Assembly (NCBI GenBank): GCA_028702025.1
Contig: JAQVPR010000001.1
Coordinates: 1 to 63,247 of the forward strand
From: Candidatus Cloacimonadota bacterium
GTDB lineage: Bacteria; Cloacimonadota; Cloacimonadia; Cloacimonadales; WRIO01
DNA length: 63,247 bases
Direction of reading: 5' to 3'
The translations under genes and the position numbers were made by a program. A model generated the notes under the pieces. That model had not been told where the DNA came from and searched no databases. It saw only the letters and a program-made list of their open reading frames with translations. This document shows, piece by piece, positions 3,316 to 61,100 of the stretch (positions are counted from its first letter, which is position 1; every line of letters begins with the position of its first letter).

Positions 3316-3320
3316 TAAAT

Positions 3321-3415: not shown

Positions 3416-3440
3416 ATATTTATTAACAAGTTTTTTAATA

Positions 3441-3467
3441 ATAAAAAAAGGAGCTTTTCAGCTCCTT
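3441..3467 (-). terminator. Rho-independent terminator of the YbgF-like gene
   Basis: Stem AAGGAGC/GCTCCTT with a 6-nt loop. On the minus strand it is followed by a T-run (plus-strand A-run at 3443-3449). Confidence 0.7.
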
Positions 3468-3485
3468 AATGATTAAAAATATATA

Positions 3486-6523: not shown

Positions 6524-7448
6524 AATCTTAATAGTTGAAGATGAATTTATTATCGGTTTCGGTATTCAACATATATTGGAGAAAAACAATTATGAAATTT
6601 GCGGTATATACAGTAAAGGTGAAGAAGCTATACAAAAAGCACTCTCTTTAAAACCTTCACTTATCCTAATGGATATAAATCTCGCCGGTGAAATTGACGG
6701 TATAGAAGCATCTGAAGAAATAAAAAAACATCTCGATATACCTATTATTTTTCTTACCTCTTATGTGGATAATATCACTGTCACACGTGCAAAAAAGTCA
6801 GAACCTTTCGCTTATCTCGTTAAACCTGTAGATTCTAAAGAACTCCTAATCACAATCGAAATGACACTCTATAAACACGAAATGCAAAAACTAATCAATG
6901 AAAAAGAAAACTGGTTTAAATCTGTTTTAAAACATCTAAGTGACGGTGTAATTGCTACTTTTAATGATTTTAGAATTAAATTTTTTAATGACGCTGCAAC
7001 GGAAATTTTCTCCAATCTTTCAGACCTACATTTCAATAACATCTTTGACTTAAATATTTACAATTATGATAGCATAAAACTTATTTCCATTGATGACTTT
7101 ATCCTTAACCAAACTAAAAACGTTAAATTTAATAATAAATTTCTTGAAATCACTGCTAATAAAATCATTAATGATAAATTTGAACTTGCAGGATATGTTT
7201 TTGTTATTAAAGATATATCTCGGAAAATTCAACTCGAAAATGAAAAAGAACAAAACCTTTCTCAACTTAGACAAGCTCTTAATGAGATACAAAAACTTAG
7301 TGATCAGTTAACTATTTGTAGCTCTTGCCAGAAATTCAAAGATGAAAACAATCAATGGCTCAAACCAATTGATTATTTTATTAACAATAAAAATATCCAA
7401 ATCTCTCAAGAATTATGTCCAAATTGTCAAAAAACAAATAGTAAATAA
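6516..7448 (+). CDS. Response regulator: receiver, PAS-like domain and C-terminal CxxC...CxxC motif
   Basis: Receiver domain (ILIVEDE, LILMDINL, KP). The middle region is PAS-like. The C-terminus is TICSSCQKFKDENNQWLKPIDYF...ELCPNCQ. It overlaps the kinase stop by 8 nt. Confidence 0.8.
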   Translation: MHKILIVEDEFIIGFGIQHILEKNNYEICGIYSKGEEAIQKALSLKPSLILMDINLAGEIDGIEASEEIKKHLDIPIIFLTSYVDNITVTRAKKSEPFAYLVKPVDSKELLITIEMTLYKHEMQKLINEKENWFKSVLKHLSDGVIATFNDFRIKFFNDAATEIFSNLSDLHFNNIFDLNIYNYDSIKLISIDDFILNQTKNVKFNNKFLEITANKIINDKFELAGYVFVIKDISRKIQLENEKEQNLSQLRQALNEIQKLSDQLTICSSCQKFKDENNQWLKPIDYFINNKNIQISQELCPNCQKTNSK

Positions 7449-7494
7449 ACAAAGTAATATTTCATTTTTTTCTATTCATATAAAGTATTAAGCT

Positions 7495-7539
7495 ATTGAA
7501 TAATAATATTGTGCGAGCTTCCTTGTTTGAGCATTAAAA
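7495..7539 (+). repeat. Copy of the hairpin repeat family (diverged 3' arm)
   Basis: ATTGAATAATAATATTGTGCGAGCTTCCTTGTTTGAGCATTAAAA shares the ATTGAATAAT...TTGTGCGAGC leader and core 5' arm with copies at 32999, 33241 and 48282. Confidence 0.7.
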
Positions 7540-8508: not shown

Positions 8509-9200
8509 TTTTTCTCTAAAATATCAGGTCTAATTTTTTTTGTTAATTCGATAGCTTTTTTATTTCGCCATTTATTAATATTTTTATGGTTACCTGAAAT
8601 AAGAACTTCAGGTACTGTCATATTTTCGAATTCATAAGGTCTTGTATAATGAGGACATCCTAAAAGAGAATTTTCGTGGGAATCTGTTTTAGCTGAATCA
8701 GAATCGCTTAAAACACCATCTAAAAGACGAGATATAGCATCAATGAAAATCATTGCCGGTAGCTCTCCACCGGATAGGACATAATCTCCGATTGATATTT
8801 CATCTGTTACGTATCTATCTCTGATTCGTTGGTCAATTTCTTTATAGTGTCCGCATATTAATGTAATTTCAGAATTATGTGAATATTCTTTGATTATATT
8901 TTGATTTAAAAGACGACCTTGAGGGGTAAAATAAACAATCTGATCTTGTTGTTCTTGTTGTGTTTTATTATTTATAAATTTTAAAGCTTCAGCAATGGGC
9001 TCAGGTTTTATTACCATACCCGGACCTCCACCATACGGATAGTCATCTACTTGCCTATTTTTATCGTTTGAGAAATCTCGAATATCAATTAGATTAAGTT
9101 GCATTTCACCTTTTGATTGAGCAATAGCAGGAATACTTTCACTCAAAAAGTTGTAAAATATTGCCGGAAATAAGGTTAATACATTAATTATGATACTCAT
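8505..9200 (-). CDS. trmD: tRNA (guanine37-N1)-methyltransferase TrmD
   Basis: INVLTLFPAIF, DDYPYGGGPGMV and SIGDYVLSGGELPAM motifs, in the rimM-trmD-rplS synteny. Confidence 0.95.
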   Translation of the reverse strand: MSIIINVLTLFPAIFYNFLSESIPAIAQSKGEMQLNLIDIRDFSNDKNRQVDDYPYGGGPGMVIKPEPIAEALKFINNKTQQEQQDQIVYFTPQGRLLNQNIIKEYSHNSEITLICGHYKEIDQRIRDRYVTDEISIGDYVLSGGELPAMIFIDAISRLLDGVLSDSDSAKTDSHENSLLGCPHYTRPYEFENMTVPEVLISGNHKNINKWRNKKAIELTKKIRPDILEKK

Positions 9201-9715
9201 ATATCAATGAATTGATCTAAATCTTGTACTTTTATATAGCAATCTTTTAGATTAGTTTCTGTTACAAAAGCTTCAACATCAGGAATTAAAACGATTTTAC
9301 CGTCATTCATTTTGATTTCATAAACATCATGAGCTCCATTGAAAAAGAAGTTTTCAATGATTGCAACCTCTTGGTTATTCCAAACTACTTTCATTCCTAT
9401 AGGATCGAAATATTGGTTTGAGTTATCAATATTTATGATATCCTCTTCGTTTAAGCAAAGAGAAATTGAATGTTCTTGTTTGATTTCTTTTATAACATCA
9501 TCATCTAAGATTTCTAAATAGTATTGTTTTTCATCAATAATTTCTACAATGTTCACAGTTACATATCGCACTCTATGGTCTTTAAAGATCAAAAATACTT
9601 GTTTAAGATTAGATATAAAATCTTGGAATTCAGTTTTTGGTTTTAAAATAATCTTTTTTGGATTATTATGACTGAATTCCAAACTACCAATCTTAATTAA
9701 GTCTGAAATCTCCAT
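9197..9715 (-). CDS. rimM: 16S rRNA processing protein RimM
   Basis: 172 aa located between the KH protein and trmD. C-terminal PRC-barrel-like region (LIPDVEAFVTETNLKDCYIKV). Confidence 0.75.
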   Translation of the reverse strand: MEISDLIKIGSLEFSHNNPKKIILKPKTEFQDFISNLKQVFLIFKDHRVRYVTVNIVEIIDEKQYYLEILDDDVIKEIKQEHSISLCLNEEDIINIDNSNQYFDPIGMKVVWNNQEVAIIENFFFNGAHDVYEIKMNDGKIVLIPDVEAFVTETNLKDCYIKVQDLDQFIDI

Positions 9716-23565: not shown

Positions 23566-26500
23566 TTATTTCAATATAGATAATTTATTAGTTTTTATGA
23601 TTTCTTTATTACCTTTATTTGCGATAATTTTATAGAAATACATACCGTTAGCAAGTTCATAACCTTCTTCATCTCTGCAATCCCAGCTATAAACTGTTCT
23701 TGGATATTCGTGATATCCTACAGATACCGGAAGGTTTCTAAAAGTTTTAACTAAGCGACCGCTAACAGTATAAACTTTTAAGGTTACAGTATCGGCATCA
23801 TCGGTAAGAGTATATGTAAATCTTGTTCTACCGGCGTTTACGGGATCTATGGTTCTACTTCTTACCGGATTAGGGTAATTTGCTGTTCTTATTAAATCAA
23901 ATCTGTCGTTTATTTTAAAAGAAAATTGTCTTGAATTGTGATTCCCGTTTACATCTGAACAAGAAATAATTATCGTATAGTCTCCCTTAGGATGAGAAAG
24001 ATGATATTTCATAGGGATATGGTTTGTATGTTCGGGTATAATAGACATTGCAAAATCTTGAGGATTAATGAGTTGACCATTGATGTACATTTCTATTGGA
24101 TGCTCTAAGATATCTATGCCGTTTGCGTCACTAAATAAGAAAGATAGTACGCCTTTACCTGAGATATATCCTCCAACAGTAAATTCTTGACCTTCAACGT
24201 TAACGTCTATTAGAGGTACAGTTGTGTCATAATTTCGTAAGACGGTATAAGTCCCTGTTTTAGTAACGTCACAAATGACTTTTTTATTAACTGTATCTAT
24301 ATAGGATCCACCTTGTTGTATCCATTTTGAGGTATAAGCATCCCATCTAAAAACAGTAAAATTATTTTCAGTTTCTTGTTCTAAGACATCAGAATCTGTT
24401 TTGTGGTAAAAGAAACTTAGTATTATCCTTTTATTCTTGGGTAATGTTCCAAGTGTGTCAATTAAGCCGGAATTATCAAGCAATGATATGTTAAAGGCAG
24501 GAGAGAAGTCATTGTTTATGAGTTTTAGAGTCTGTATGTCAGGTTGATTGTCCGGGTTTAGGGAAGGTGATTTCTCTATGGAGAACCAAACATCTTGTTG
24601 AAATATATTTTCCGGGATGTCTATTTTAAGATTTTTATCTAAGGAATAGATTGAAAATGGATTTAATCCTGCTTTAAAGAAATAATTATCAAGTTGATGA
24701 CTCATTGAATTATTAGTATATGAATATTCTCCAAAATTTTCACCATTATTATTGACTATTGCATTAATTGTTAAATGTTGAATAGTTTGAGGTATGCTAA
24801 CAAAAAGCCATATATTATCCATTATATTGATTGGATTAACTTCAATTTGATTTAATTCTTTAGTCCCGGACTTAAGTGATAAATTAGTAGGTTGCGAGAT
24901 AACATCTCCTGAATTTTGGATTTGAATATTATAACCCGGTTCTCCATTATTTTCTGTTAAAAGCATATTGAGTATAACTAAGTCCGGAGCTGAGATTTTA
25001 AAAGAATAAGTTTCAGAATTTGTTATTGCACTATCATCAGCCCAGTAGATTTTAAAGTGGTAATTAATTATTTGTCCTGCTGCAAACGGTTTAATTCTAT
25101 GGCTGATGTATTGTTCGGCGATATTGTCCCATAACATATCATAAGTATTTTCTGTATAATTCGTGATAGTAGTAAGAGTTAATTTATGGATGTTTTTATT
25201 TGTAAATAATTTGGTTGTAATTTGGATAGAGTCATTTTCAGTAGGTATGTCCGGGATGACATTTGATTCAGTAAAGATGCTATTACCAATTGCAAATTTA
25301 CTATTTACGGAATACACTTGATTAGTTCCTGAAGCAATGATTTTTATATCACGCTTCCCTGAGCCTAAATCATTAGGTATAGTATATTGATTTTGAAATA
25401 TTCCTTGTATTGCAGGAGATTCATAAACAATATTTTGTGCAATTTCATTTTCATTTAGGATATACATTTTTGCTGAATATACGTCAGGTGTAAAATTTGC
25501 ATTAATCGTGAGTGTATCTCCCGGGTTTACTAAGTAATTATCGTTATCTATTGATATTTCTCCGTTTTGTATAATTCTATGATGACCTATCATTGGGTCG
25601 CCTAAAAGAACACATCCTTGTGTAAGTGCAATTCCTGCATAACTATTGCCATATTGTCCAAAAAATTTTGCTTTTGTGTAGGTTGAAATTTCTCCGAATG
25701 ATTTTAGATTTTTATTAAAAAATCCATCAGCTAAATAATTACCAAAATCTTCATCTTGTCTTAAATAGCCTAATCCTGAAAAACCGATATGAGCTATAGC
25801 TCCTTTACCGGGTTCAGCAACAAACACTTCTCCAATGGAAGCTAATCCTCGTGTATCAAATGCTGAAGCAAAACATGCTAAGCTGGAGACAAACGGATAA
25901 TTAGTGTTAGAAAGTGTTTTTACATCATTAGCATTTAAGAGGTTATAGTCTGACCATATACGACCACCACCATGCCCCATAAATTGTAAAAATACAGTAC
26001 CATCGTTAATTTTATCTTTTAATTGGAAAGTGCCACCGGTATATTGAGGAGATACTGTAGATACGGCTGTATAAACTCTATTTACTTGATAATAATCCGG
26101 AATATAATTTGTTCTTATATTTTCATTTTGTTGAGCAAAAGTGTCGGTATAATCTGATATTTTACCTCCTGAGGCGAGTGTAACTTGACTATGCCATTTG
26201 CTATGAAAGTCCGGATTATTAATGTAATGGTGCGTCTTTTCTGCAATAGAAAGGATATGTTCTTCTTCTGTAACACTGATTCTGGAAATGTGAAAATCAG
26301 GTATTGGATCATCTCCGATAATGCATGCATACCAGTTATCTGATGCGGTTGCACCATATTTGTTAGTCCAAATATTATATATAGGAATTATATCATATTT
26401 GTCAATATCAGCTTGATGTTTTTTATCAAAAATCCCGTCACCAAGTAATAAAACGTGAGAAAAACGTGGTTCAGTCCAATTATTATAAGCATAAGAAAAG

Positions 26501-28566
26501 AAATTTTTAATTGCCTTAGGAGATATTTGACCATTATTAAACTCATCATATATGTCTTGCACGTCAATAAGTTTTGTATTAATACCGTTTGTTTGCCAAG
26601 TTTGTTGTAGAAATAAAGCCCCTTCTGATTTTGCAAATTGTGTATTAGTTAAAATTAAATAGTCAGCTTGGTTATCTGGATTTAACAAATCTGAGGGAAT
26701 ATCATAAGAATATGCAAAAGGGGTTAATTTTTGGTTGTCTGTTAATGCAATGTATTCTATTTCATTAGAATTTATATAGTCTTGAAATTTTATTGTATAA
26801 GGCGGGATTCCAAGCTCTGTTAAGGGTTCAATGGTTATATTGTTAAATACACTTGATCCAATTTTATAGATGCTTACATCTTCTTGAGTAAAATTATGTA
26901 GTTCAAATTGATATAAACCAAAAGGGCGATTGGATGGCTTTTTAAACTTAAGAAAGTTTTTGTCTGTTCGGTATTCTCTCCAATAAGTAATCTCAAAATA
27001 ATCTAAAAATATTTGTTCTAAATATCCCATTGGCGTATCACCGGGCATATCAATAAACATATTGTTTGTTCCATTTATTAAATAGCTATTAGCCATATTG
27101 GAGTGATTTTCAAATATTTGTTCTGTTTGATCTCTCCAACTTTGATTATTGACTAAGGCGGAATTTATTCTAACAATAGCGTGATGATCATAATCATTGC
27201 TTGAAGATAAATGAGAAGCACCCCAAACAGATACTTTTGCATTAAAATATCGGGTATTGACATTTAAGGGATATTCTAATTCAAATGGAGATATGTTTAG
27301 GTCAGGAGCTGTAATTGCTTTCCAAAATAATACATCTTCTTTGTGAAAGAAAGTATTACCTTGAGCAACTTGATTACCTAATCTATCTGTGAATACTTGA
27401 TTTTCAAAATGCACTGTCTGCTCATATCCATCAGGGATGATGATATTGGATGAATTAGTCTCGTTTAATCCGCCGTTTTCTACAGCCATTCGTGTTCCTA
27501 CTGTATCATTGAGTAGGAATAATTTATAAATGTTTTTATTTGTGTAAGAATGATAGTAGGCCTCTTCACCTTTGTTATGTTCACCCCAAAATTCAAGGTA
27601 GTCGCCGGGGTCAAAAGATTGGTCGTTTTCTCCTACAAAATGAATGGGGACCGGCATACCATTGTTTTTTAGTTCTAAATATTTTGGATTAAGTTGGTCA
27701 ATATCCCATAAGAAATTAATATTTAAAGAATCTTGCATTACTTGCATTTGTTCTTTTAGTTCTTCGTAGGATATTTTATAAATACCATCTTCAATAATTA
27801 CAATATTTAAAATAGAAATATCATTTAACCCTTTATATTTTGGTTCATAATTTTTCACTTTACTTGTGTTTTCTCTTTGCCATAATTTAGCTTTGTCGTA
27901 GTTTAATAATAAGTCGTTTAAAAAAAGACTGTACCTATCCTCATAAAAAGAATTTCGTGTTTTATTTGTTGTGCCGGAAATAGATATATTTATTCTTGCT
28001 GAGTTTATAATTTGAAGGGTACGATTTTGAGAATTTACTTGGAATGGATGAAAAACAAAGCTTTGAATTTTATTATTGCCGGCAAAAGCACTTTCATTTG
28101 TTTTTATAGGAAAAACGGGATATAGGGTATTGCTATTGTAAAAATCTGTATTTGCTTGTAAAATATAATCAATTTCAGGAAGTGTATCTTGCTGTAATTG
28201 AATATTTTCTTTGTATCTTAATTCTATAGTTTCATTGGGTTCAATTAAAATGTTTGCAATTTGTGAAGTTTGGGTGTTAGAGATTGAAACATTTATCTTA
28301 CCGTCAACAGGGATGCCAATAATTTCACTAAATATAGGTAAACTCGGTAATCCTTCTTCAGAGGTATATGAAGCTGAAGGACATATTATTTTTTGATAAC
28401 CTTCTAATTCTGAGTTTTTTATCTCGTATTGAGGCAAGTTAAAGTCTAATATGATATTATTGTCTGTAATAGAAATTATTGTAAATGGAGAGCAATGTAT
28501 TGAAGTAATAAGTAAAAATGAGAAAAAAATAAAAACAATTATTTCTTTTGTTAAGTTTTTTTTCAT
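23566..28566 (-). CDS. Peptidase C25 (gingipain/PorU-like) giant surface protein with T9SS-type C-terminal domain
   Basis: Signal peptide. Caspase-like His/Cys dyad context FMGHGGGRIW ... FVSSLACFASAFD. C-terminal FlgD-Ig/T9SS type A-like domain (NYPNPVRS...TLKVYTVSGRLVKT...GMYFYKIIA...LSILK). Confidence 0.8.
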   Translation of the reverse strand: MKKNLTKEIIVFIFFSFLLITSIHCSPFTIISITDNNIILDFNLPQYEIKNSELEGYQKIICPSASYTSEEGLPSLPIFSEIIGIPVDGKINVSISNTQTSQIANILIEPNETIELRYKENIQLQQDTLPEIDYILQANTDFYNSNTLYPVFPIKTNESAFAGNNKIQSFVFHPFQVNSQNRTLQIINSARINISISGTTNKTRNSFYEDRYSLFLNDLLLNYDKAKLWQRENTSKVKNYEPKYKGLNDISILNIVIIEDGIYKISYEELKEQMQVMQDSLNINFLWDIDQLNPKYLELKNNGMPVPIHFVGENDQSFDPGDYLEFWGEHNKGEEAYYHSYTNKNIYKLFLLNDTVGTRMAVENGGLNETNSSNIIIPDGYEQTVHFENQVFTDRLGNQVAQGNTFFHKEDVLFWKAITAPDLNISPFELEYPLNVNTRYFNAKVSVWGASHLSSSNDYDHHAIVRINSALVNNQSWRDQTEQIFENHSNMANSYLINGTNNMFIDMPGDTPMGYLEQIFLDYFEITYWREYRTDKNFLKFKKPSNRPFGLYQFELHNFTQEDVSIYKIGSSVFNNITIEPLTELGIPPYTIKFQDYINSNEIEYIALTDNQKLTPFAYSYDIPSDLLNPDNQADYLILTNTQFAKSEGALFLQQTWQTNGINTKLIDVQDIYDEFNNGQISPKAIKNFFSYAYNNWTEPRFSHVLLLGDGIFDKKHQADIDKYDIIPIYNIWTNKYGATASDNWYACIIGDDPIPDFHISRISVTEEEHILSIAEKTHHYINNPDFHSKWHSQVTLASGGKISDYTDTFAQQNENIRTNYIPDYYQVNRVYTAVSTVSPQYTGGTFQLKDKINDGTVFLQFMGHGGGRIWSDYNLLNANDVKTLSNTNYPFVSSLACFASAFDTRGLASIGEVFVAEPGKGAIAHIGFSGLGYLRQDEDFGNYLADGFFNKNLKSFGEISTYTKAKFFGQYGNSYAGIALTQGCVLLGDPMIGHHRIIQNGEISIDNDNYLVNPGDTLTINANFTPDVYSAKMYILNENEIAQNIVYESPAIQGIFQNQYTIPNDLGSGKRDIKIIASGTNQVYSVNSKFAIGNSIFTESNVIPDIPTENDSIQITTKLFTNKNIHKLTLTTITNYTENTYDMLWDNIAEQYISHRIKPFAAGQIINYHFKIYWADDSAITNSETYSFKISAPDLVILNMLLTENNGEPGYNIQIQNSGDVISQPTNLSLKSGTKELNQIEVNPINIMDNIWLFVSIPQTIQHLTINAIVNNNGENFGEYSYTNNSMSHQLDNYFFKAGLNPFSIYSLDKNLKIDIPENIFQQDVWFSIEKSPSLNPDNQPDIQTLKLINNDFSPAFNISLLDNSGLIDTLGTLPKNKRIILSFFYHKTDSDVLEQETENNFTVFRWDAYTSKWIQQGGSYIDTVNKKVICDVTKTGTYTVLRNYDTTVPLIDVNVEGQEFTVGGYISGKGVLSFLFSDANGIDILEHPIEMYINGQLINPQDFAMSIIPEHTNHIPMKYHLSHPKGDYTIIISCSDVNGNHNSRQFSFKINDRFDLIRTANYPNPVRSRTIDPVNAGRTRFTYTLTDDADTVTLKVYTVSGRLVKTFRNLPVSVGYHEYPRTVYSWDCRDEEGYELANGMYFYKIIANKGNKEIIKTNKLSILK

Positions 28567-32217: not shown

Positions 32218-32991
32218 ATGGATAATAAAAATGTTTATGAAAAATTTGATTGGGAGCAGTTACAAACTAAGAATTTATTAAATAAAATTGAGATTATAAA
32301 TGAATTTATACCTGATGATGTGAAAAGTATTATTGATATTGGTTGTGGAAATGGGATTATTACAAATATGCTAAGTGCAAAATATGATGTTACCGGTGTT
32401 GATCGAAGTGAAAAAGCATTATCCTTTGTTACAACTTAAAAAATCTTGTCTGATGCTGAACAGATACCCGTAAAAGATAATAGTTATGATTTAGTTTTTT
32501 CAAGTGAGATGTTAGAACACTTAGATGATGATTCGTTGAATTTAGCAATTAGAGAAATGAAAAGAATTAGCAAGAAATATATTTTGATTTCAGTTCCAAA
32601 TGGTGAAAATCCTATGAAAAATTCAATTCAATGCCCAAAATGTAAACATATTTATGCTCGTTCATATCATTTACAATCTTTTAAGCTTAATAAATTAGTG
32701 AAATTATTTCCTGAGTATAAACTATTGAAATATAAAACTTCAGGTATAAAAGTAAGGTATTACCGTCCTTTTATTTTAAAGCTTAAATATAAATTTTCAC
32801 CGCCTATATCATGGATTCCTTATTATTGGATACACAGAAATCAACGAAATACTGTTTGTCCAAGATGTGAAAATGAGTTTATTTTTCAATATAAATTTAA
32901 TTTGGCAGCTACTTTTTTCGATTTAGTAAATATTGTGTTTTCTTCAAAAAAACCATATTGGTTAATTGTTCTTTTAGAAAACAATAAATAG
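32218..32991 (+). pseudogene. Class I SAM-dependent methyltransferase interrupted by an in-frame TAA (32437-32439)
   Basis: ORFs 32218-32439 (motif I IIDIGCGNGIIT) and 32446-32991 (post-I/II region DLVFSSEMLEHLDD, plus CPKC...CPRC) are in the same frame. A single TAA separates them. Confidence 0.7.
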
Positions 32992-32998
32992 AACGGCA

Positions 32999-33162
32999 AT
33001 TGAATAATATTGTTGTGCGAGCATCCTTGCTTGCATTAAAATAACCTTAAGTCATAGTTATTCAATATTTTATAAAACTACAAGCTGGAAGCTTTAGAAC
33101 AATAATTGAAATTATTCAACAGCCTTTATGTAGTAGCTTTATAGAATATTTATACTTGATTT
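32999..33162 (+). repeat. Long copy (E1) of the hairpin repeat family
   Basis: ATTGAATAATATTGTT, core GTGCGAGCATCCTTGCTTGCAT (33015-33036), then ...ACCTTAAGTCATAGTTATTCAATATTTTATAAAACTACAAGCTGGAAGCTTTAGAAC. A tail (..CAACAGCCTTTATGTAGTAG..CTTGATTT) is shared with copies at 33241 and 51284. Confidence 0.85.
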
Positions 33163-33216
33163 ACAAGGGACCTCCAAGATGCTTTAAAGCATCTTGGAGG
33201 TCCCTTGTGTTTTTCT
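33163..33216 (+). terminator. Very strong intrinsic terminator hairpin (20-bp stem) closing repeat copy E1
   Basis: ACAAGGGACCTCCAAGATGC-TTTAAA-GCATCTTGGAGGTCCCTTGT followed by GTTTTTCTT. The same arms recur at 51395-51441. Confidence 0.75.
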
Positions 33217-33240
33217 TATAATTTTATGTTAAAAAAGGTA

Positions 33241-33418
33241 GTTGAAAAATAATATTGTGCGAGCATCTCTGCTTGCACTCAAAACCTTAAGTGATAGGTA
33301 TTCAATATTTTATGAAACTACAAACTGGAAGCTTGTAGAACATTTTTGCATTTTGGGACAGCGTCTGAAAAATGTGGCTAAGGTTTTAATTGTTCTTTCA
33401 CAGCCTCGTATGAATAAG
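33241..33418 (+). repeat. Long copy (E2) of the hairpin repeat family
   Basis: Core GTGCGAGCATCTCTGCTTGCAC (33257-33278), then ACCTTAAGTGATAGGTATTCAATATTTTATGAAACTACAAACTGGAAGCTTGTAGAAC. The tail is TTTTGGGACAGCGTCTGAAAAA...CACAGCCTCGTATGAATAAG. It abuts the kinase stop at 33422. Confidence 0.85.
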
Positions 33419-33421
33419 ATT

Positions 33422-35146
33422 TTAATTGTTATGATTGATTAGATCTTGTATTTTGATTGAGATTTCGTGAAAATCTAATGGTTTTTTAAGTATTGCATCA
33501 ACTAAGAGGTCATTTGCCATTTTTTCAGATTCTTCGTTATGGTATCCGGAACATAAAATAATCGGAATTTTATTATCAATGGCTTTTATTTTTTTGATTA
33601 AATCAAATCCGTCAGACTTTGGCATTATCAGATCAGTGAAGATTAGGTTATATTTATCCTTATAATTTACATAATACTCAAATGCCTCAAGACTGTCATT
33701 AAAGATATCTACATCGTAGCCGAGTTTAGATAAAAAATCTTGCATAAGAAAGTTAATGGAAGGTTCATCATCTACGAATAAAATAGAACCCTTTCCATAT
33801 TGATAAGTGTGTAATTCTTTTGGTTTTTCAATGTGTATGGAATCAATTTTGGGTAAGAAAATTTCAAATTTTGTGCCTTTTCTGGGTTCAGAAATAACTT
33901 CGATAGAGCCGTTATGTTCAGAAACTATGCCTAATACAACAGATAATCCAAGACCTGTTCCTTGGTCTTTGTTTTTAGTAGTAAAGTAAGGGTCAAAGAC
34001 TTTATTTAATATATTTTTAGGTATCCCTGAGCCGTTATCGGAAACAGTTAATTTATAATAAATTCCGGGTGTGATTTTATTATTAAAAATTAGGGTGGTA
34101 TCTATATCTACATCTATTTGTTCTAAGATGATATTGATGATACCGGGTTTGCCTTGCATTGCATGCCAAGCATTAGTGCAGAGATTGAGAAGTATTTGTT
34201 TGATTTGTATGTCATTTCCCGCAATCAGTGCGTGTTTAATATTAATTTGTAGGTTTATATCTACTATTGAAGGTATGGTAGGACGGATTAATTTAAGTGA
34301 TTCTTCTATGCAATCTATTAAATTAATTGGTTGTATTTCTTTTGAACTTTTTCTTGAAAAGGTTAAGATTTGTTTTATTAATTCTTTAGCTCTATTTGAA
34401 GCAAAAAGGACTTCTGAAAGGTATTTTTTTATTTTATCCGGTTTTTCTACAAAGTTATTGGCGATTTCCGTATATCCGATTATAGCTGACAGGATATTAT
34501 TAAAGTCGTGTGATATGCCACCTGCAAGTGTACCTAAAGCTTCGTGTTTTTGAGAAGTATTTAAATGATTTAGTAAAACTAAATTGTCATTTTTAATCTT
34601 TGTTAAGTCAGTTACATCTAAGGCGAAACATACAATTCCTGATATTTGATGATTTTCGGCAAATACAGGTAATATATTGACTTCAAAGTAATAAGCCTTA
34701 TTATTTATTTGTATGGAACAATCTCTTTTTAAAAGAGATTTTGCATTTTGAATTACAAAAAGTTCGTCACTTTCATTAAAGTATTCAGTTTTGAAAAGTG
34801 ATTTTTGATTATGTCCGATAACTTTAGAAATTTTTAAATTAAAAAATGATAAAAATGGTCTGTTGACTCGAACAAAGTTTAACTTTATATCTTTGAAAAA
34901 GATAATTGCCGGTGAGTAGTCAAGCATAATTTGTAATTCATAAAGTGTATTTTCAAGAGTTCTTTGATAGTGGATTAATTCTTCATTTTTGTTGATGACA
35001 TTTTTTTCGAGGTTATTAACAATTTCTAAGTATTTATCTGTAATTGCTTTGTTTTCTTGTTTTGTAAGGTTAAGTTCATTTTTGATTTGTTGATTTTCAA
35101 TTTCTAAATATTTGATTTTTTCTAACAACTCGGGAGTTTTGTCCAC
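33422..35146 (-). CDS. Hybrid sensor histidine kinase (coiled coil, PAS, HisKA, HATPase, receiver)
   Basis: H-box GISHDFNNIL, N-box LCTNAWHAM, G-boxes DNGSGI and GTGLGLSVV. C-terminal receiver domain (ILFVDDEPS, IFTDLIMPKSDG, KKP). Confidence 0.9.
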   Translation of the reverse strand: MDKTPELLEKIKYLEIENQQIKNELNLTKQENKAITDKYLEIVNNLEKNVINKNEELIHYQRTLENTLYELQIMLDYSPAIIFFKDIKLNFVRVNRPFLSFFNLKISKVIGHNQKSLFKTEYFNESDELFVIQNAKSLLKRDCSIQINNKAYYFEVNILPVFAENHQISGIVCFALDVTDLTKIKNDNLVLLNHLNTSQKHEALGTLAGGISHDFNNILSAIIGYTEIANNFVEKPDKIKKYLSEVLFASNRAKELIKQILTFSRKSSKEIQPINLIDCIEESLKLIRPTIPSIVDINLQINIKHALIAGNDIQIKQILLNLCTNAWHAMQGKPGIINIILEQIDVDIDTTLIFNNKITPGIYYKLTVSDNGSGIPKNILNKVFDPYFTTKNKDQGTGLGLSVVLGIVSEHNGSIEVISEPRKGTKFEIFLPKIDSIHIEKPKELHTYQYGKGSILFVDDEPSINFLMQDFLSKLGYDVDIFNDSLEAFEYYVNYKDKYNLIFTDLIMPKSDGFDLIKKIKAIDNKIPIILCSGYHNEESEKMANDLLVDAILKKPLDFHEISIKIQDLINHNN

Positions 35147-48160: not shown

Positions 48161-48281
48161 AACTATATCCTCCAATTAAATATTCACATTATTTTCATTT
48201 AAAGCAAATTTATTTTTAAAAAAGTTCCTGTCAACTTATTTTTCTTACTTGAGATAATTAAATCCAATATTTATAAAGACT

Positions 48282-48389
48282 ATTGAATAATTTAGTTTAG
48301 CGAGCATCTTTGCTTGCACCATAAAACATCTTAACTATAGGATATTAATTAATAAGTTTCTTGCTTTTTGGAACAGGCTTTCAGAAAAC
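48282..48389 (+). repeat. Copy F1 of the hairpin repeat family
   Basis: ATTGAATAATTTAGTT, core TAGCGAGCATCTTTGCTTGCAC (48298-48319), then ..CTTAACTATAGGATATTAA.. and ..TTTTTGGAACAGGCTTTCAGAAAA. Confidence 0.8.
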
Positions 48390-48512
48390 TATTGTTGTGG
48401 AAACATCTCTGTTTGGGTTTAAATTCTTAATTGGCGCACATTCAGTATGTTATGAAACTATAAGTTGAAAGTCCGTAGAACTTTTTTGATATTTTGAGAC
48501 AGCTTAAGGAAG
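48390..48512 (+). repeat. Copy F2 of the hairpin repeat family (diverged core with compensatory changes)
   Basis: Core GTGGAAACATCTCTGTTTGGGT (48397-48418), then ..ATTCAGTATGTTATGAAACTATAAGTTGAAAGTCCGTAGAAC and TTTTGAGACAGCTTAAGGAAG. Confidence 0.75.
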
Positions 48513-48614: not shown

Positions 48615-48643
48615 TTGACAATTAAATAAAATAACTTATTATT
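48615..48643 (+). promoter_or_regulatory. Possible promoter of the solute-binding protein gene
   Basis: TTGACA (48615-48620), a 16-nt spacer, then TATTAT (48637-48642). Confidence 0.45.
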
Positions 48644-49417: not shown

Positions 49418-49483
49418 AAAATTAAGAATTTTGTTTTAAATTGTTTGATGATATGATTTTGTCAGCATTTGGATCGGTTTTGA

Positions 49484-49580
49484 GGATTTATGTTGTGCGA
49501 GCATTTTTGTTTGCACAACTTATTTTATTAATAGATGGTTTTATAGCATTTAATGTTTTCAGTGTTATGGTTTTCGTAAC
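49484..49580 (+). repeat. Copy H of the hairpin repeat family (12-bp stem)
   Basis: GTTGTGCGAGCATTTTTGTTTGCACAAC (49492-49519) followed by ..AATAGATGGT..TTTCAGTGTTATGG..CGTAAC, which aligns with the linker of the other copies. Confidence 0.75.
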
Positions 49581-49668
49581 TTTCTGTTTGATAATAATTT
49601 TACCTGTATGCTTATATCATTATATGGTTGTAAATTTGAATAAAATTCAATTATTTTGTAAAAAAAAC

Positions 49669-49697
49669 TTGACAAAAAAAATATCTTATATATTATT
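49669..49697 (+). promoter_or_regulatory. Possible promoter of the TRL-like lipoprotein cluster
   Basis: CTTGACAAAA with TTGACA at 49669-49674, a 16-nt spacer, then TATTAT (49691-49696). This leaves a leader of about 170 nt before the ATG at 49871. Confidence 0.5.
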
Positions 49698-49870
49698 AAA
49701 TTAATAACTAATTGAAATTAATGATTTTGGTCTTGAAAAGTATATATATGAAGATTAATTTTGATTTGCCAACTTAATTAATTTTCAAAGTGATAGAAAT
49801 CACAAAAATCCTATTAATTTAGGTGGTGTACCGATGACTGGTTTGTCGGAAAAAAATGAAGGAGTACGTT

Positions 49871-51283: not shown

Positions 51284-51305
51284 GAAAGTATTTTTGTTTG
51301 CACAA
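51284..51305 (+). repeat. 5'-degraded copy (G) of the hairpin repeat core
   Basis: GAAAGTATTTTTGTTTGCACAA matches the loop and 3' arm of the 49492 copy. It is followed by a TTTCGAGACATTCTTCCGAA tail motif and ..ATCTTGATTTT as in copy E1. Confidence 0.55.
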
Positions 51306-51394: not shown

Positions 51395-51441
51395 TACAAG
51401 GGACCTCCAAGATGCTTTTTCCTTCTTGGAGGTCCCTTGTA
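51395..51441. repeat. Second copy of the GC-rich GGGACCTCCAAGA hairpin
   Basis: TACAAGGGACCTCCAAGA-TGCTTTTTCCT-TCTTGGAGGTCCCTTGTA has 18-bp arms identical to 33163-33208 with a different loop. No clean T-run on either side. Confidence 0.85.
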
Positions 51442-54944: not shown

Positions 54945-55130
54945 TAAGTTAAATACTTTGTCTAAGCTCTATTCATTAATCATTACATACCTCTTATAAG
55001 TTATCAATCATCATTTGACTTTTTGATAGAAAAATATTAGATATTATGTTATTATGAAATCTGAAACTTGTCAAGAGAAAATGTTTTAATAATAAAAAAA
55101 AATAAAAATGAGTATTTTTAAAATTTTTTG

Positions 55131-55161
55131 TTGACAAAATCACAGCTTTTAAACATATTAT
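55131..55161 (+). promoter_or_regulatory. Possible promoter of the T9SS-cargo gene pair
   Basis: GTTGACAAAA with TTGACA at 55131-55136. -10 candidates CATATT and TATTAT lie 17-19 nt downstream. Confidence 0.4.
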
Positions 55162-55193
55162 ATCATAGACATGATTTAAGGAAGGAGTCGATT

Positions 55194-58043
55194 ATGAAAA
55201 AGAGTATTTTGCTATTTTTAGTTTGCTTTGCATTAGCAAGCTTTTTATTGGCTGAAAATGTAACTGTTGTAAACACAAGAACAAATCAAGAACCTACTCA
55301 AAAACTTCGCGTTGAAGAGGAAGTTATTGTATTTGAAAATTTTGAAGATGGTTTAGGAAACTGGGTAACCGAAGATGCAACATTGCCTCCACATCAATGG
55401 CATTTATCTAACACTTCAGCACTTACCTACCAAGGAACCGGTTATAGCTGGTTTATGGGTAATCCTGAACTCGGTACAAACGGTGGTTATACTGACGGTG
55501 TGTTAATTTATTTACAAACACCTGCTATAACTGTACCTTCAGCTAGCTCAAATCTTACTTTTAAAGTAAATTTTGAATTAGAAGAGCCTGCAGTTCATGA
55601 AGGTTATGATGGCTGGGATGCTGCTAATGTAAGAATTTCAACTGACGGTGAAAACTGGACAGTATTAGAACCTACAGGTTTACCTTATAATTGTACTTCA
55701 ATGTATGGTTTTGGTTATAATGGCGAAGGCGAAGGCGTAGCCGGATGGGGTGGATCAAGTGATGGCTGGCAAGATGTTACTGTTGACTTATCAAGCTATG
55801 CAGGCGATGACGTAATGATTCGTTTTGTATTCGGTTCAGACCCTGCTTATAATACTGCTGATGATCCTGATATGTTTGGTATCTTAGTTGATAATATTAC
55901 TCTTGGTGATTTCTCTCATGATTTTAATGATAATCAATTAAACGGAATGACAGTTGGTAGCTCTATCCCTGTTGGTGGAGATTTATGGCATACTGCAGAA
56001 TATGATTTAGCAACTTCCGGTACTTATGTATTAAGCTGTAATAACGCTAATGATACCTATGAACCAAATATGAGAAATTATATCTATTCAGAAGTTTATG
56101 ATTTACCTTCAGCAGGCGATATAAGAGCAGATTTTCAACTTAGAGGAACCTGGTCAGATAATGATACTGAAGACTTAACTCTTATGGATTATTTTGGTTG
56201 GGAAATTTCTCCTGATGCCGGTGCTAATTGGTATGCAATGAGCAATCCTTACGGAGATCCTAATGGTGATAATTATGTTTTTTCTAATGCTCCTGAACAA
56301 TTCCAATCAATGGTTGAATCATATACCTCTATAGACGGAATAATTACTGACTATGCAGGTCAATCTGTTCAATTCCGTTGGTACTTTAAATCTGATAGCG
56401 ATGCTCCTATGGGCGAAGCTATAATGATTGATGACTTTAGAATTTATCATAAATTAGAATTATTAATTCCACAAAATTTAACTGCTGAATATATTGGTGA
56501 TGGTATCGAACTTAACTGGGACGATCCTAATACCACTAATCCTGCTGTTGAAGGTTGGATTACTCAAGGTTTAGATACTTATACCGGTACTGGTATTGGT
56601 GTTAATGCTGCTGCTCAATTTAGCGTAGCTCATAGATTCACTTCTGCTCAACTTAACGAAATTCAAGCTATAGGTGGTTATTTAACTAAAGTTTCATTTA
56701 TTGGAAATGAAGCTACAGCTACATATTCTATCAGAGTATGGACCGGTGGATCTACTAATAATCCGGGAACTACTGTTGTAGAACAAAATGTAACAAACTT
56801 TGTCGCAACTGAATGGGTTGAAGTTGAATTAAATACTCCTGTTCTTATTGAACCGGGTCAAGAATTATGGTTTGGTTATTATTGTGATACACCTTCTGGT
56901 TACCCTCTTGCTACTGACGGTGGTCCGGTTAATGAAGGTTTTGGAAACGTAATTCAATTTCAAAATTCATGGACTACTTTAACAGCCTTAGGTGACAATT
57001 TAGAATACAATTGGATGATTAAAGGTTATGTTGCAACTGATGATGGTAGAGTTGTATTAAATAAAAACTTCAATACAAATATAAGAAATACAAGAGAAGA
57101 TGTAACAGGCTATAAAGTATATAGAAAAGTTGCAGCCGGTGATGATTTTGAAGAAATTGGTGAAGTGGGTGCTGATGTTACTACATATATTGATGAAACT
57201 CCTGTATATAATTCAGTTAATTTCTATGCAGTAACTGCATTATACGGAACTGAAGAATCTGAATACTCAGATGAAGCTACTGCTTTTGCTCCTGGTGAAA
57301 CAACTTTCTTATATTCTCATGATGATGGAACTGCTGAATCAGGTTTAAGCTACGCAGGTATCGTTCTTAACAAAATGAGCCCAACTGTTGTGCCTTATAC
57401 CCTTACACACGTTTTATTCTATCTTGAAACTAAAGCCGGAAACTTCTTCTTAAAAGTTTATGGTGATGGTGGTAATCAACCTGGTGAAGAATTACTTTCT
57501 ACTCCTGTTTTAGCATCTAACCTTAATGAAGGTTGGAATATTATCGATATCGAAGATATCGACTTTGAAAGTGGAATATTCTATATTGGTGCTCAAGTTG
57601 CTACAAGCAGTTCAAAAATTGGTATTGATGAAGATTACGAAGGAACTCCTGTTTCTGTAAGAAAAACATCAACTGCTCCTTCTTTTGATAACTTTACTGA
57701 TGGCGTATTTATGATTAGAGCTTATGTTGATTTACATACCGGTAATTCAGAAATAGTATTACCTCAAACTAAATTAACTGCTAATAATTATCCAAATCCA
57801 TTCAATCCGGAAACTACTATTTCTTTCAATATCCCTACTTCAGGTAATGTTTCTGTAAAAGTATTTAATGTCAAAGGTCAAATCGTAAATACCTTAGTCA
57901 ACGAAGAAATGAAAGCCGGAAATAATCAAGTAATTTGGAATGGCCTTGATTATGCAGGTAAACAAGTTACTTCAGGTGTTTACTTCTATAAAGTAGAAAC
58001 TGAAAATCATTCAATAATTAATAAAATGTTATTGATGAAATAA
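55194..58043 (+). CDS. Large secreted protein with jelly-roll/lectin-like and FN3-like domains and a T9SS type A C-terminal sorting domain
   Basis: Start at M23 of the track ORF, after AAGGAG. Signal peptide. C-terminal NYPNPFNPETTISFNIP...VKVFNVKGQIVNTL...SGVYFYKVET...MLLMK. The function of the N-terminal domains is not recognised. Confidence 0.75.
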   Translation: MKKSILLFLVCFALASFLLAENVTVVNTRTNQEPTQKLRVEEEVIVFENFEDGLGNWVTEDATLPPHQWHLSNTSALTYQGTGYSWFMGNPELGTNGGYTDGVLIYLQTPAITVPSASSNLTFKVNFELEEPAVHEGYDGWDAANVRISTDGENWTVLEPTGLPYNCTSMYGFGYNGEGEGVAGWGGSSDGWQDVTVDLSSYAGDDVMIRFVFGSDPAYNTADDPDMFGILVDNITLGDFSHDFNDNQLNGMTVGSSIPVGGDLWHTAEYDLATSGTYVLSCNNANDTYEPNMRNYIYSEVYDLPSAGDIRADFQLRGTWSDNDTEDLTLMDYFGWEISPDAGANWYAMSNPYGDPNGDNYVFSNAPEQFQSMVESYTSIDGIITDYAGQSVQFRWYFKSDSDAPMGEAIMIDDFRIYHKLELLIPQNLTAEYIGDGIELNWDDPNTTNPAVEGWITQGLDTYTGTGIGVNAAAQFSVAHRFTSAQLNEIQAIGGYLTKVSFIGNEATATYSIRVWTGGSTNNPGTTVVEQNVTNFVATEWVEVELNTPVLIEPGQELWFGYYCDTPSGYPLATDGGPVNEGFGNVIQFQNSWTTLTALGDNLEYNWMIKGYVATDDGRVVLNKNFNTNIRNTREDVTGYKVYRKVAAGDDFEEIGEVGADVTTYIDETPVYNSVNFYAVTALYGTEESEYSDEATAFAPGETTFLYSHDDGTAESGLSYAGIVLNKMSPTVVPYTLTHVLFYLETKAGNFFLKVYGDGGNQPGEELLSTPVLASNLNEGWNIIDIEDIDFESGIFYIGAQVATSSSKIGIDEDYEGTPVSVRKTSTAPSFDNFTDGVFMIRAYVDLHTGNSEIVLPQTKLTANNYPNPFNPETTISFNIPTSGNVSVKVFNVKGQIVNTLVNEEMKAGNNQVIWNGLDYAGKQVTSGVYFYKVETENHSIINKMLLMK

Positions 58044-58057
58044 AAAAATATAATTTA

Positions 58058-58086
58058 CAGACGGGTTAATGCCCGTCTGTTTTTTA
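58058..58086 (+). terminator. Rho-independent terminator between the two cargo genes
   Basis: Stem CAGACGGG/CCCGTCTG followed by TTTTTT. Confidence 0.8.
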
Positions 58087-58105
58087 ACATTTATAAGGAG
58101 ACTCT

Positions 58106-61100
58106 ATGAAGCGTATAAGTATAATATTAATACTTATTTTAAGTTTAACTCAATTGTTAGCTGTAAGTAATTTCGATGAAAAAAATTTCTATCCTAATTC
58201 CATTATTGTCTGTTTTGATTCTAATGCAATCAATAGTACAACCGGTGAGATTACGATAGAACAAACAAATTTGGGACAAGTTCAGATAGGTCTGAAATCA
58301 TTTGATGATTTAGCAAAAAAATATGATTTTGTTGATTTAGAGAGAATGTTTTGGGTGAAAAATCAAAAGTGGTCCGATGATAACGGTGCATACCCAATGA
58401 ATATATTCAGAGTTACTATTAAAAATAATAATATAATTGAAGAAGCTTTAAATGCTTTAACTAAAGATAAAAATATCATTTTTGCTGAATATGAAGCAAT
58501 CTTGAAACAATCTTATATCCCTAATGACCCAACTTTGGATTTAATGTGGCATATTCCCATTATGCAAACTCCCGAACTTTGGGATTACGTAAGAGGTGAT
58601 ACTACTATTGTTGTTGCTATCATTGATTCAGGAGCTAAATGGAATCACGAAGACTTAAGAGATAATATCTTTATTAACTACGCTGAAATGCCGGGAATGA
58701 CTATTAATTGGGCAAACGGTACCGTCTCAGGCGGCGATGCTCAAGATAATGACGGCAATGGAAAAGTTGATGATGTTATCGGATGGGATTTCTTTGTTGG
58801 AAATAATAATCCTTATCAATCTTATGACGGTAATGACCATGGAACTCACGTTGCAGGTTGTGCCGGTGCTGTTAGTGATAATAATGTTGGTATAGCTTCT
58901 CCTGCTATGCATATAAAATTACTCATTTCAAAACACCAGTCACATACTCAGTATAGTAATAATGTAACTAATGGATATGGTGGTATATACTATGCTGTAG
59001 ATACCGGTGCTGATATTATCAACTGCTCATGGGGAGGTACAGGTGGTAGTGGTACAGCCAATACTGCTGTTAATTATGCAAATAGTGAAGGTATTTTAGT
59101 TGTTTCTGCTGCAGGAAATGAATATCAAAGCAATGATACTTATCCAAGTTATCCATCAGATGCAACTAATGGTGTTGCTGTTGCAGCAAGTGATCAAAAT
59201 GATATAAAAGCAAATTTCTCAAATTGGGGAGATGCTATTGATATCACTGCTCCCGGTGTCGCTATTAGATCAACAATCTATCATGGAACTCACGCTAATG
59301 CTGTTGATGCTTATGCTGCATATCAAGGAACTTCTATGGCTTCACCTGTAGCTGCAGGTATTGCTGCTATGATAAAATCTGTCCATCCGGAATATACCCC
59401 TGCTCAGATTAGACAACGTATGTCTGAAACTGCTGACCCAATGCCTAATGAACCTTATTTCGAACAGGGTAAACTCGGTGGTGGTAGAATTAATGCTTTT
59501 AAAGCTGTACTTTCAGAAAAAATTCCTAACCTTGAAATATATGGTGATTTATTGGTTGAAGAACTGGAAGGTGATGGAGACGGTGTTCCTAATGTTGGAG
59601 AAACTGTGTCTGTTACTTTTAGTTTAACAAATCTTGCCGGTTGGTCTTATGCTGCCGGAGTACAAGCAGTTTTATCTACAGAAACTGAAGGTGTAGAAAT
59701 TGAAGAAGGTAATTTAACCTTTAGTGATATGCTAAGTGAAATGATTGTTACTTCTGATAATCAAGCAGTTGTTTCTATTTCTTCTGATGTTAATACGTTA
59801 AATATCCCAATGCTCTTAACAGTTACTTGTAATCAAGAAGCTTCAAATCCTTATCCATATACAAAAGAAATTCCCGTGACTTTAAATCTTTCAATGAATC
59901 AGGCAGGATGGCCTTTAGTACTTGATGCTCAGTCTCCTTCAGCTCCTATAGTTGCTAATTTAGACGGAACAGGTAAAAAATTAATTACTATCGTAAGTGG
60001 TGTAATTCATGTAGTTGATTCTGAAAAAAATTATGCTACCGGATTCCCTTATGACACAGGTGCTAATACTTTAGGTCAATTAGCTATAGGTGATGTGACA
60101 GGTGATGAAGATAATGAAATCGTTGTTGCAAATTCAAATGGATGGTTAAGAGTTATCAGTGCTTCGGGCGAATTACTTAATGAATATGATACTCAAGGAA
60201 ATCTAAGAAATGCTCCTATTATTGCTGATTTGAATAATGATGGACAAAATGAAATTATTGTCGGAAATCAAAGTCGTAAAGTAATAGTTTTAAATGGAAA
60301 TGATTTAAGCGTATGGCCTAATTATCCGGTTGATTTAGGTGGAGTCATTATCACAAATTTAGCAGTGGGCGACATTAATAACAATGGTAATCAAGAAATT
60401 GTTATAAATCTTATTGGTAGCCCGGGTGCATTACATATACTTGATCCTGTTACCGGTCAAAATATTTCCGGTTTCCCATTGACAACCATTGGAGCTAGTA
60501 ATATGGGCTCATCAATTGGAAATTTGGATGACGATGATGATTTAGAAATTATTTTTGCCGGCTCATTAGGTACAAATTGTCCTATTACAATAGTAAAAAG
60601 TGATGGTTCTATATTACATAATGAAACTTTCTCTTATGGTATTAAAACGGAAATTGCGATTGTTGATTTGAATAATGACGGTCAAAATGAAATCATTTTT
60701 GGTGATTATAATGGTGACCTTTATGTGAAAAATGTAGATTTTGAAAACGTTACCGGATTCCCTTTAAATGTAGGAATAGGTATTGAGTCTTCTCCTGTTT
60801 TTGCAGATTTTGATTCTGATGGAAACAGAGAAATCGTTTTTGGTGATAATAATGGTAAAATACACGTTGTAAAATATAATGGAACATATATTAATGCATT
60901 CCCTGTTAAGGTTTCAGATACTCCTTTTAAAACATCTCCGTGGGTAGGAAATTTTGATAGTGATGCTGATGGTGATATTCTTTTAAATGGAAATACCGGT
61001 GTATTATTCTTAGATTATAAAGAATCAATTTCTGATTTATTTTGGAATACTTTTAGAGCAAATTTTGGAAATACAGCAAATAATGCTGATATTTCAACTC

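Follow-up and report, generated by a model that had tools for sequence, protein, structure and literature searches.

We analyzed a 63,247-nt stretch of a contig assigned to a Candidatus Cloacimonadota bacterium (JAQVPR010000001.1, positions 1–63,247; hereafter the window), in which a 22-nt hairpin recurs between genes. A first-pass annotation, made from the sequence alone, had described a dense family of nine such loci, had doubted that it is a classical mobile element and had suggested selection on a strand-specific hairpin. Our results argue against that judgment: the hairpin is probably an internal module of a non-coding, modular family of non-autonomous miniature inverted-repeat transposable elements (MITEs). 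The terminal inverted repeats of complete units, the 5-bp target duplications around some of them and a matching empty site in a related strain together point to a MITE with its transposase encoded in another place. The family is new as a sequence family; MITEs and repeats resembling repetitive extragenic palindromic (REP) sequences are kinds of element that are already well known.

Architecture of the repeat unit

The hairpin noted first, here called S1, is a 22-nt palindrome of the form GTGCGAGCA-N4-TGCTTGCAC. A search for this pattern with up to three mismatches gave 13 strand-hits in the window compared with 0.01 expected from dinucleotide shuffles, so the family is a genuine and dense one, as first described. 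Relatives were drawn from 120 metagenome stretches (∼1 Mb, 31% GC), whose loci and strains carry L-numbers (e.g., L116). Counting over these stretches, the contigs of two metagenome-assembled genomes (MAGs) and the window, we obtained 326 distinct S1 copies and 104 full units.

A complete unit is ∼135 nt long and runs from a terminal inverted repeat through S1, a linker and a second hairpin (S2) to the matching inverted terminal repeat. Each end is compound, with a 16-nt terminal inverted repeat and, a few bases inward, a 22-nt hairpin palindrome preceded by TGTT. The terminal repeat is AAGGCTGTTGAATAAT in type A and AGAGGCTGTCCCAAAAT in type B, the latter often with further extension, and the right terminal repeat reads ATTATTCAAC(A/C)G(T/C)C(T)T, the inverse of AAGGCTGTTGAATAAT. 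Heads read aaGGCTGTTGAATAATgttgtt (type A) or AGAGGCTGTCCCAAAATtaatgtt (type B), and tails run ...ATTATTCAACAGTCTC or ...ATTTTGGGACAGCCTCT. The subtypes of head and tail go together (A/A, 12 units; B/B, 26; discordant, 4). Type-B units often have an extra inverted extension (..AAAATCTTAGCCACNNNTTTCAG..), which the window copy at 33235–33407 carries on its tail.

Between the hairpins lies a linker of ∼40 nt, TAAAAACCTTAAGTGATAGGTATTCAATATTTTATGAAA, with a third small hairpin (ACCT..AGGT). S2, CTACAAGCT-N3-AGCTTGTAG, stands in inverted orientation; its full form is CTACAAGCTGGAAGCTTGTAG, followed by AAC. It is an inverted homolog of S1: the reverse complement of the common S2 variant, CTACAAGCATCCTTGCTTGTAG, has the 14-nt core AGCATCCTTGCTTG in common with S1. 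The sequence (T)GTT stands 5′ of both hairpins, each in its own orientation, and TGTT precedes S1 in 271 of 326 copies. Direct-repeat finding and alignment recovered all the parts that the longer copies had been said to share, namely a leader, a linker, a second hairpin and a TTTTGGGACAGC tail. Folded with DNA parameters, the canonical unit forms an outer head–tail stem plus S1 and S2 (−29.7 kcal/mol, z = −7.4), and the unit as a whole is quasi-palindromic.

Parts of the unit also occur singly or in arrays, with periods of 33–34 nt for S1 alone, 51 nt for head plus S1 and 63 nt for S1 plus S2. Arrays of whole units have periods of 109–136 nt and hold up to seven copies. Larger composite palindromes in related loci (e.g., L057 at 3380–3640, L071 and L084) join S1 and S2 to the modules CGACCAGGATGGTCAAGCTACG (53 copies), GTGTGAGTCGAGAACGG (45) and GTCATTCTGAACGAAGTGAAGAATC (30), all of which are absent from the window.

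Insertion footprints and the proposed mobilizing enzyme

Target duplications were assessed in 37 non-redundant type-A units, with the ends placed 2 nt outside GGCTGT/ACAGCC and the expectation taken from cross-pairing the flanks of different units. Identical 5-mers bordered both sides of eight units (TTTTA, TAATA, TTATT, CATTT, TATTT, TAAAT, TTTAA and AAGAA) versus 0.31 expected, and the 3-bp register gave 10 matching flanks versus 1.47 expected (p about 1e-6). At the filled site of L116, the sequence reads ...AATATCATTT / 135-nt element / CATTT / GTATTGAACCAG..., with CATTT on both sides of the element. The orthologous site of L099 reads ...AATATCATTT / GTGTTGAACCAG..., with a single CATTT and no element. 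A difference of this kind between a filled and an empty site is the mark of insertion at a 5-bp staggered cut.

Copy number varies between close relatives as well. The S1 array at 3321–3422 has three units in the window and two in the 98%-identical L180, an exact 34-nt indel; L064 has two full units versus one in L114; and L097 and L140 differ by one S1 in each arm of a palindromic cluster. The copies near 33 kb are common to strains at 99.7% identity and change at about six times the rate of the DNA around them, with the S2 of the unit at 32992 one base shorter in the window strain than in those strains (1 nt deleted relative to L182 and L183). For the loci of the window itself no empty site was found: every strain at 99.7% identity has the elements, and the nearest homologs of the adjacent kinase gene are not syntenic downstream. 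Stretches of 7–12 kb retrieved around the two closest of these homologs (63% and 53% identity) contained zero copies, in keeping with absence of the family from more distant relatives.

We propose that a transposase encoded elsewhere in the genome moves the element in trans and that a staggered cut by a DDE-type enzyme would leave the 5-bp duplication. The subterminal hairpins may be part of the end that is recognized by the transposase or its cofactors, which would explain wobble-compatible pairing on the inward-reading strand. After insertion, units decay, with many copies now stumps of head plus S1, and S1 arrays gain and lose 33–34-nt repeats, probably by replication slippage. Possible terminator roles of some copies, and the stop codons that others supply, would be by-products and not the reason for the family's existence.

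In these respects the family resembles the bacterial MITEs Correia (Neisseria) and RUP (Streptococcus pneumoniae), which are likewise ∼100–150 nt long, non-coding, multi-copy and intergenic, often lie by gene ends, have terminal inverted repeats, short target-site duplications and the potential to form long hairpins, and are mobilized in trans. It differs from them in its 5-bp duplication (TA in Correia and RUP), in compound ends that combine a terminal repeat with a subterminal 22-nt hairpin and in that a parent insertion sequence was not found. The arrangement head-(S1)n-...-tail also recalls the pneumococcal BOX element (boxA-boxB(n)-boxC), with pairing end modules around a variable tandem internal module, an analogy of architecture; the host lineages are unrelated.

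Scanning every window ORF of at least 80 aa with Pfam revealed no transposase or integrase, which agrees with the first-pass annotation. Several candidates for a parent element were tried and set aside. A search for the terminal repeats spaced 0.3–5 kb apart yielded no more than a pair of MITEs on either side of a protease gene. When ORFs were screened more generally for bounding inverted repeats, inspection by eye showed ordinary genes only. A further candidate, a 3.5-kb insert specific to one strain, proved to be an ars island. The last, at 4404–8365 of L137, is an arsenic cluster (ArsC, ACR3, ArsR and a thioredoxin-like gene) in place of which L129 has ∼420 nt (8999–9420). Five PD-(D/E)XK “transposase” genes are present in the related contigs.

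At least three IS200-like Y1_Tnp genes also occur in the related contigs (motif search; Pfam E 1e-25 to 1e-28), at L062 7695–8177, L079 12081–12452 (minus strand) and L176 8511–8966 (minus strand). Each is flanked by REP-like hairpins of its own kind (GCATTCC-N4-GGAATGC; GCCACTTCAGTGGC; CCGGGCGTAAGCCCGG / GCTCCTACGGAGC), and these genomes host several distinct palindromic repeat systems. S1 and S2 flank none of the three genes, an incomplete sample, and the window has no Y1 gene; a link between S1 and a REP-associated tyrosine transposase (RAYT) is ruled out for these three, all of which have different hairpins.

The Y1 genes bear on an alternative in which S1 and S2 are REP sequences and the doublet a REPIN, moved as single-stranded DNA hairpins by an HUH tyrosine transposase of the RAYT or IS200/IS605-like kind, with the terminal repeats incidental. 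The family does resemble REP, REPIN and bacterial interspersed mosaic elements served by RAYTs: S1 is a short imperfect palindrome with a conserved 5′ tetranucleotide (TGTT), S2 makes the unit an inverted doublet, singlets and clusters of S1 occur outside genes, the wobble polarity of each hairpin tracks its own orientation (see below), and the Y1 genes with their own REPs show that such systems operate in the same genomes. It departs from them in the features that define the full unit. HUH/Y1 transposition, as in the IS200/IS605 and RAYT families, yields neither target duplications nor terminal inverted repeats, and full units have both; no Y1 gene bordered by S1 or S2 turned up, and the orientation bias in GC skew is absent. 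We therefore consider this alternative unlikely. Given these properties of the families, the target duplication suggests a DDE-type enzyme rather than an HUH one, an identity that we infer.

Palindrome-associated elements derived from IS200/IS605 (PATEs), which are similarly small and non-coding with subterminal hairpins, were considered too. PATEs have no terminal inverted repeats or target duplication, and their end hairpins are direct and not inverted. Left and right ends of the IS200/IS605 type were rejected for this unit, in which S2 is inverted and which has terminal inverted repeats and target duplications.

Hairpin pairing, orientation and rival functions

The S1 stem is well maintained. 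Among 57 aligned full units, 99% of its cells are paired; among the 326 copies there are 44 compensated Watson–Crick cells, with A-T at positions 7/16 in 20 copies and C-G or A-T at 1/22 in 16. The consensus itself contains a G5.T18 wobble (298 of 326 copies). The first-pass annotation had held that mismatches in this sense are always G-T. The pairs it named are present (5/18; 7/16 in the copy at 49495; 1/22 in the copy at 33015), as is the A-T pair at 7/16 of the 48397 copy, but the generalization fails: the copy at 7511 has T.T and G.A mismatches, the one at 48298 has T.C and A.A, and in the 48397 copy the outer stem is disrupted. Over all 326 copies of the family, single-side departures number 88 G.T versus 54 A.C (binomial p = 0.005), a modest bias among copies that are not independent.

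S2 has the opposite polarity. On the sense strand of the element its departures are 95 A.C versus 32 G.T (208 copies; S1 versus S2, Fisher p = 1e-9), an excess supplied in large part by the variants CTTATAG and CTCGTAG, the second of which mirrors the G5.T wobble of S1 on the opposite strand. Such opposed polarities argue against one transcript folding both hairpins. Each hairpin favors whichever strand runs inward from the end that it occupies, which fits a feature inherited or selected at DNA ends. The third small hairpin is less regular (72% of cells paired), and covariation, one of the checks suggested at the outset, proved weak, with 15 compensated cells versus 7.7 in shuffles (57 aligned full units). 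High conservation with little covariation suggests recent amplification rather than long purifying selection.

The copies are placed almost entirely between genes. When redundant S1 copies are removed, 316 remain, and 313 of them are outside any ORF of 110 aa or more. With arrays collapsed to 135 loci, 42 are in convergent and 24 in divergent intergenic regions; the elements insert into AT-rich intergenic DNA and build up preferentially between convergent genes. Within tandem gene pairs, S1 is sense in 33 and antisense in 36, so the bias relative to flanking genes that was to be checked is not there. Local GC skew, taken in the direction of S1, has a mean of 0.004 and is positive at 51.5% of loci. 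The orientation of the family is random relative to transcription and, as far as skew tells, to replication. A replication-strand bias had appeared in the window, where eight of nine loci were consistent with a minimum of GC skew at about 18 kb, and vanished in 130 independent loci; the apparent strand bias of the window is a small-sample effect. The skew of the window is itself negative to ∼18 kb, close to zero between 18 and 32 kb and positive thereafter, and its cumulative minimum falls near 16–20 kb; genes lie on the minus strand until 36 kb. This course could mark a replication-related switch.

These data bear on whether the hairpin belongs to a structured non-coding or cis-regulatory RNA, such as a 3′-untranslated-region stabilizer, a terminator or a small RNA, kept by selection on the transcript. 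The compensated pairs of S1, its excess of G.T over A.C and the stable fold of the unit would suit such a role, as would the terminator-like copy at 49492–49519 and the several window copies just 3′ of stop codons. Random orientation relative to the flanking genes does not suit it, nor does the position of the copies at 48282–48512 and 1435–1517 upstream of promoter matches of neighboring genes. Moreover, S2 pairing favors the opposite strand, the third hairpin is loosely paired, covariation is weak overall, a window copy folded as RNA reaches a z of only −1.6, and the sequence downstream from most S1 copies is A-rich, not T-rich. At the gathering score Rfam returned only two tRNAs from the window and left the element unmatched, in line with the earlier statement that it matches no described RNA family; an E-value scan of 32950–33450 gave sub-threshold generic hairpin matches only, on 33160–33210, outside the element. 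We regard a function at the RNA level as very improbable. Of the proposed strand-specific selection, the maintenance of the S1 stem stands, whereas its reading as RNA is weakened by the orientation, the promoter-upstream copies and the polarity of S2.

Could the repeats instead be sites that the host maintains in its DNA, for nucleoid or recombination proteins or in the manner of integron attC sites, and so not be selfish at all? They are dense, strictly intergenic and palindromic, and several window loci are co-oriented. Against this, presence and absence with a target duplication is insertion, many copies are truncated or decayed, cassette arrays, uniform orientation and an integrase are lacking, and the contigs fetched for the two nearest kinase homologs are without a copy. 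We give this explanation very little credence. An integron cassette array was rejected specifically because the sites lie between housekeeping genes, in both orientations and with the integrase absent. Prophage or att sites around the minus-strand block at 7571–32008, which has copies on its flanks, were rejected as well, the block being core chromosome (L19, TrmD, RimM, S16, SRP54, ribosomal proteins, PurD and a C25 peptidase).

Several observations weigh against a simple MITE. Neither the window nor the ∼1 Mb of related contigs yielded an autonomous element or a transposase with the same terminal repeats, and the window's own full-length copies have no intact target duplication (at the 32992 unit, AATAG versus TATGT). 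Clean duplications were seen in type-A units only; attempts to place the ends of type-B units gave neither a consistent boundary nor a consistent duplication. Whole units in tandem, with 2–4-nt junctions, are unusual for simple cut-and-paste insertion, and arrays of S1 without terminal repeats require a second process (slippage or separate mobilization). Finally, the strongly conserved G5.T18 wobble and TGTT flank are left unexplained by a MITE.

Some of these points would be accommodated if S1 and S2, with their TGTT flank and G.T wobble, were not passive. They might be REP-like single-stranded DNA sites in a hybrid element served by a cut-and-paste transposase together with an HUH/RAYT-type or other hairpin-binding protein, or alternatively host terminators or protectors of mRNA ends. 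The hybrid would explain solitary S1 copies, S1-only arrays and the end-symmetric wobble polarity; we think such active roles of the hairpins a rather slim possibility. A MITE family with hairpins as internal modules remains the reading that we prefer.

Copies in the window, host lineage and neighboring repeats

The whole-unit profile hidden Markov model (HMM), built from 57 full units of related contigs and run on the window with nhmmer, recovered eight loci: three full-length units, four truncated ones and one array of three tandem units (Table 1). These are eight of the nine loci first proposed; the ninth, at 51284–51305, was not significant. The density is roughly one family element per 7 kb.

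Table 1. Copies of the repeat family and their parts in the window (positions in nucleotides; HMM, hidden Markov model)
Position	Strand	Feature	Parts	Profile match
1435–1517	−	Degenerate head, S1 and linker fragment		nhmmer E 1e-6
3305–3435	−	Deletion derivative with three 34-nt tandem S1 units	head-like cttgttaataaatatttgtt; S1 units 3389–3410, 3355–3376, 3321–3342; tail-like atttattattttagcc	nhmmer 3321–3424
7494–7539	+	Type-A head and degenerate S1	head ATTGAATAATAATATT; S1 7511–7532 (T.T, G.A mismatches)	profile HMM
32992–33126	+	Full-length type-A unit, decayed	head AACGGCAATTGAATAAT 32992–33008; S1 33015–33036 (G1.T22); linker; S2 33078–33097; tail ATTATTCAACAGCCTT 33111–33126	nhmmer 32995–33128, E 1e-31
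33235–33407	+	Full-length unit, A-like head and type-B tail	head AAGGTAGTTGAAAAAT; S1 33257–33278 (perfect consensus); linker with ACCT..AGGT; S2 33318–33338; tail ATTTTGGGACAGCGTCT 33350–33366; extension module CTGAAAAATGTGGCTAAGGTTTTA 33365–33388, then ..CACAGCCTC motif up to 33407	nhmmer 33237–33368, E 5e-40
48280–48379	+	Truncated unit	type-A head ATTGAATAAT; degenerate S1 48298–48319 (outer two pairs broken); partial linker; S2 missing; type-B-like tail TTTTTGGAACAGGCT 48365–48379	nhmmer 48280–48348, E 7e-8
48375–48505	+	Full-length degenerate unit, abutting the 48280 unit	B-like head AGGCTTTCAGAAAACTATTGTT; S1-like 48397–48418 (inner stem compensated, A-T at 7/16; outer broken); S2-like 48458–48478; tail ATTTTGAGACAGCTT 48491–48505	nhmmer E 1e-19
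49480–49519	+	Head-like sequence and S1 only	S1 49495–49516 (G7.T16)	nhmmer 49480–49517
51284–51305	+	Doubtful remnant	ATGAAAGTATTTTTGTTTGCAC; S1 likeness in 3′ arm only	unit profile E>1, not significant

The claim that every copy is intergenic holds for credible genes, with the qualification that the tail-like end of the 3305–3435 array overlaps the last codons and stop codon of ORF 2584–3315. Among ORFs of 80 aa or more, a single one, 49441–49704, overlaps a window copy, the 49480 stump; it has a TTG start and no Pfam match. Several copies sit close to the ends or starts of genes. The 32992 unit begins right behind the TAG stop of ORF 32446–32991, the 7494 copy lies 3′ of ORF 6516–7448 and is followed by a terminator hairpin, and at 49492–49519 S1 followed by T-rich TTATTTTATT has a terminator-like score for the upstream solute-binding-protein gene. 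The copy at 1435–1517 lies between a tRNA-Leu gene and the promoter of an ABC transporter, and some copies are upstream of best promoter matches (48615 and 49669), the 48375 unit of that at 48615–48642. Effects of such placement by terminators, stop codons or promoters are plausibly incidental rather than selected.

The window (30% GC) is 98%–99.9% identical to contigs of JGI metagenomes (Ga0334899, Ga0265294), ENA assemblies and Logan assemblies. Its ORFs encode core chromosomal functions by Pfam (ribosomal proteins, SRP54, TrmD, PurD, SerS, SelA, RND efflux and proteases with tails of the type IX secretion system, T9SS). A pattern scan of species-representative genomes found true copies in only two MAGs, CAZJNG01 and JBAYZJ01, other matches being mostly chance. 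Viral, plasmid and phage collections held zero S1 or unit matches and no sequence similarity. Full-text literature searches that paired terms beginning Endomicrobi- or Elusimicrobi- with REP or MITE returned no description, and the S1 string retrieved unrelated primers only. The two MAGs carry conflicting taxon labels, CAZJNG01 being deposited as Cloacimonadota and JBAYZJ01 as Endomicrobiaceae; contigs of JBAYZJ01 (e.g., L022/L057) are 99% identical to the JGI metagenome series that holds the strain of the window. Window proteins at 55128–61405 and 23566–28566 have T9SS-type C-terminal sorting domains (Por_Secre_tail, FlgD_ig), and the nearest named homologs of the window's proteins are in Cloacimonadota, the phylum that we tentatively favor.

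The finding leaves the general picture of MITEs and REP-like repeats unaltered and shows several families of small palindromic repeats pervading these genomes. Polymorphic insertions and the number of S1 tandem repeats offer ready strain markers for an uncultured and little-studied anaerobic lineage, and the compound end, a terminal repeat with a conserved wobble hairpin, poses a small question of how a transposase recognizes its substrate. In annotation the elements may pass for genes of RNAs, for CRISPR-like arrays or for regulatory motifs, and they act as assembly breakpoints. Short-read contigs of the same strain break at or within the repeat cluster beside the methyltransferase gene (the ends of L185–L187 and position 198 of L188).

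That methyltransferase gene, at 32446–32991 and upstream, is split in the window (181 aa plus a 73-aa piece) and likewise in L187, and is intact (257 aa) in L182–L186 and L188 (99.7%–99.9% identity); a recent frameshift or nonsense mutation is the probable cause. At 33163–33208 and 51399–51440 the window also carries another repeat family, unrelated to the first, a near-perfect palindrome of ∼46 nt (ACAAGGGACCTCCAAGATGC-loop-GCATCTTGGAGGTCCCTTGT) with 38 copies in 37 searched sequences including the window. Its copy at 33163 has a strong intrinsic-terminator score and weak generic Rfam hairpin matches.

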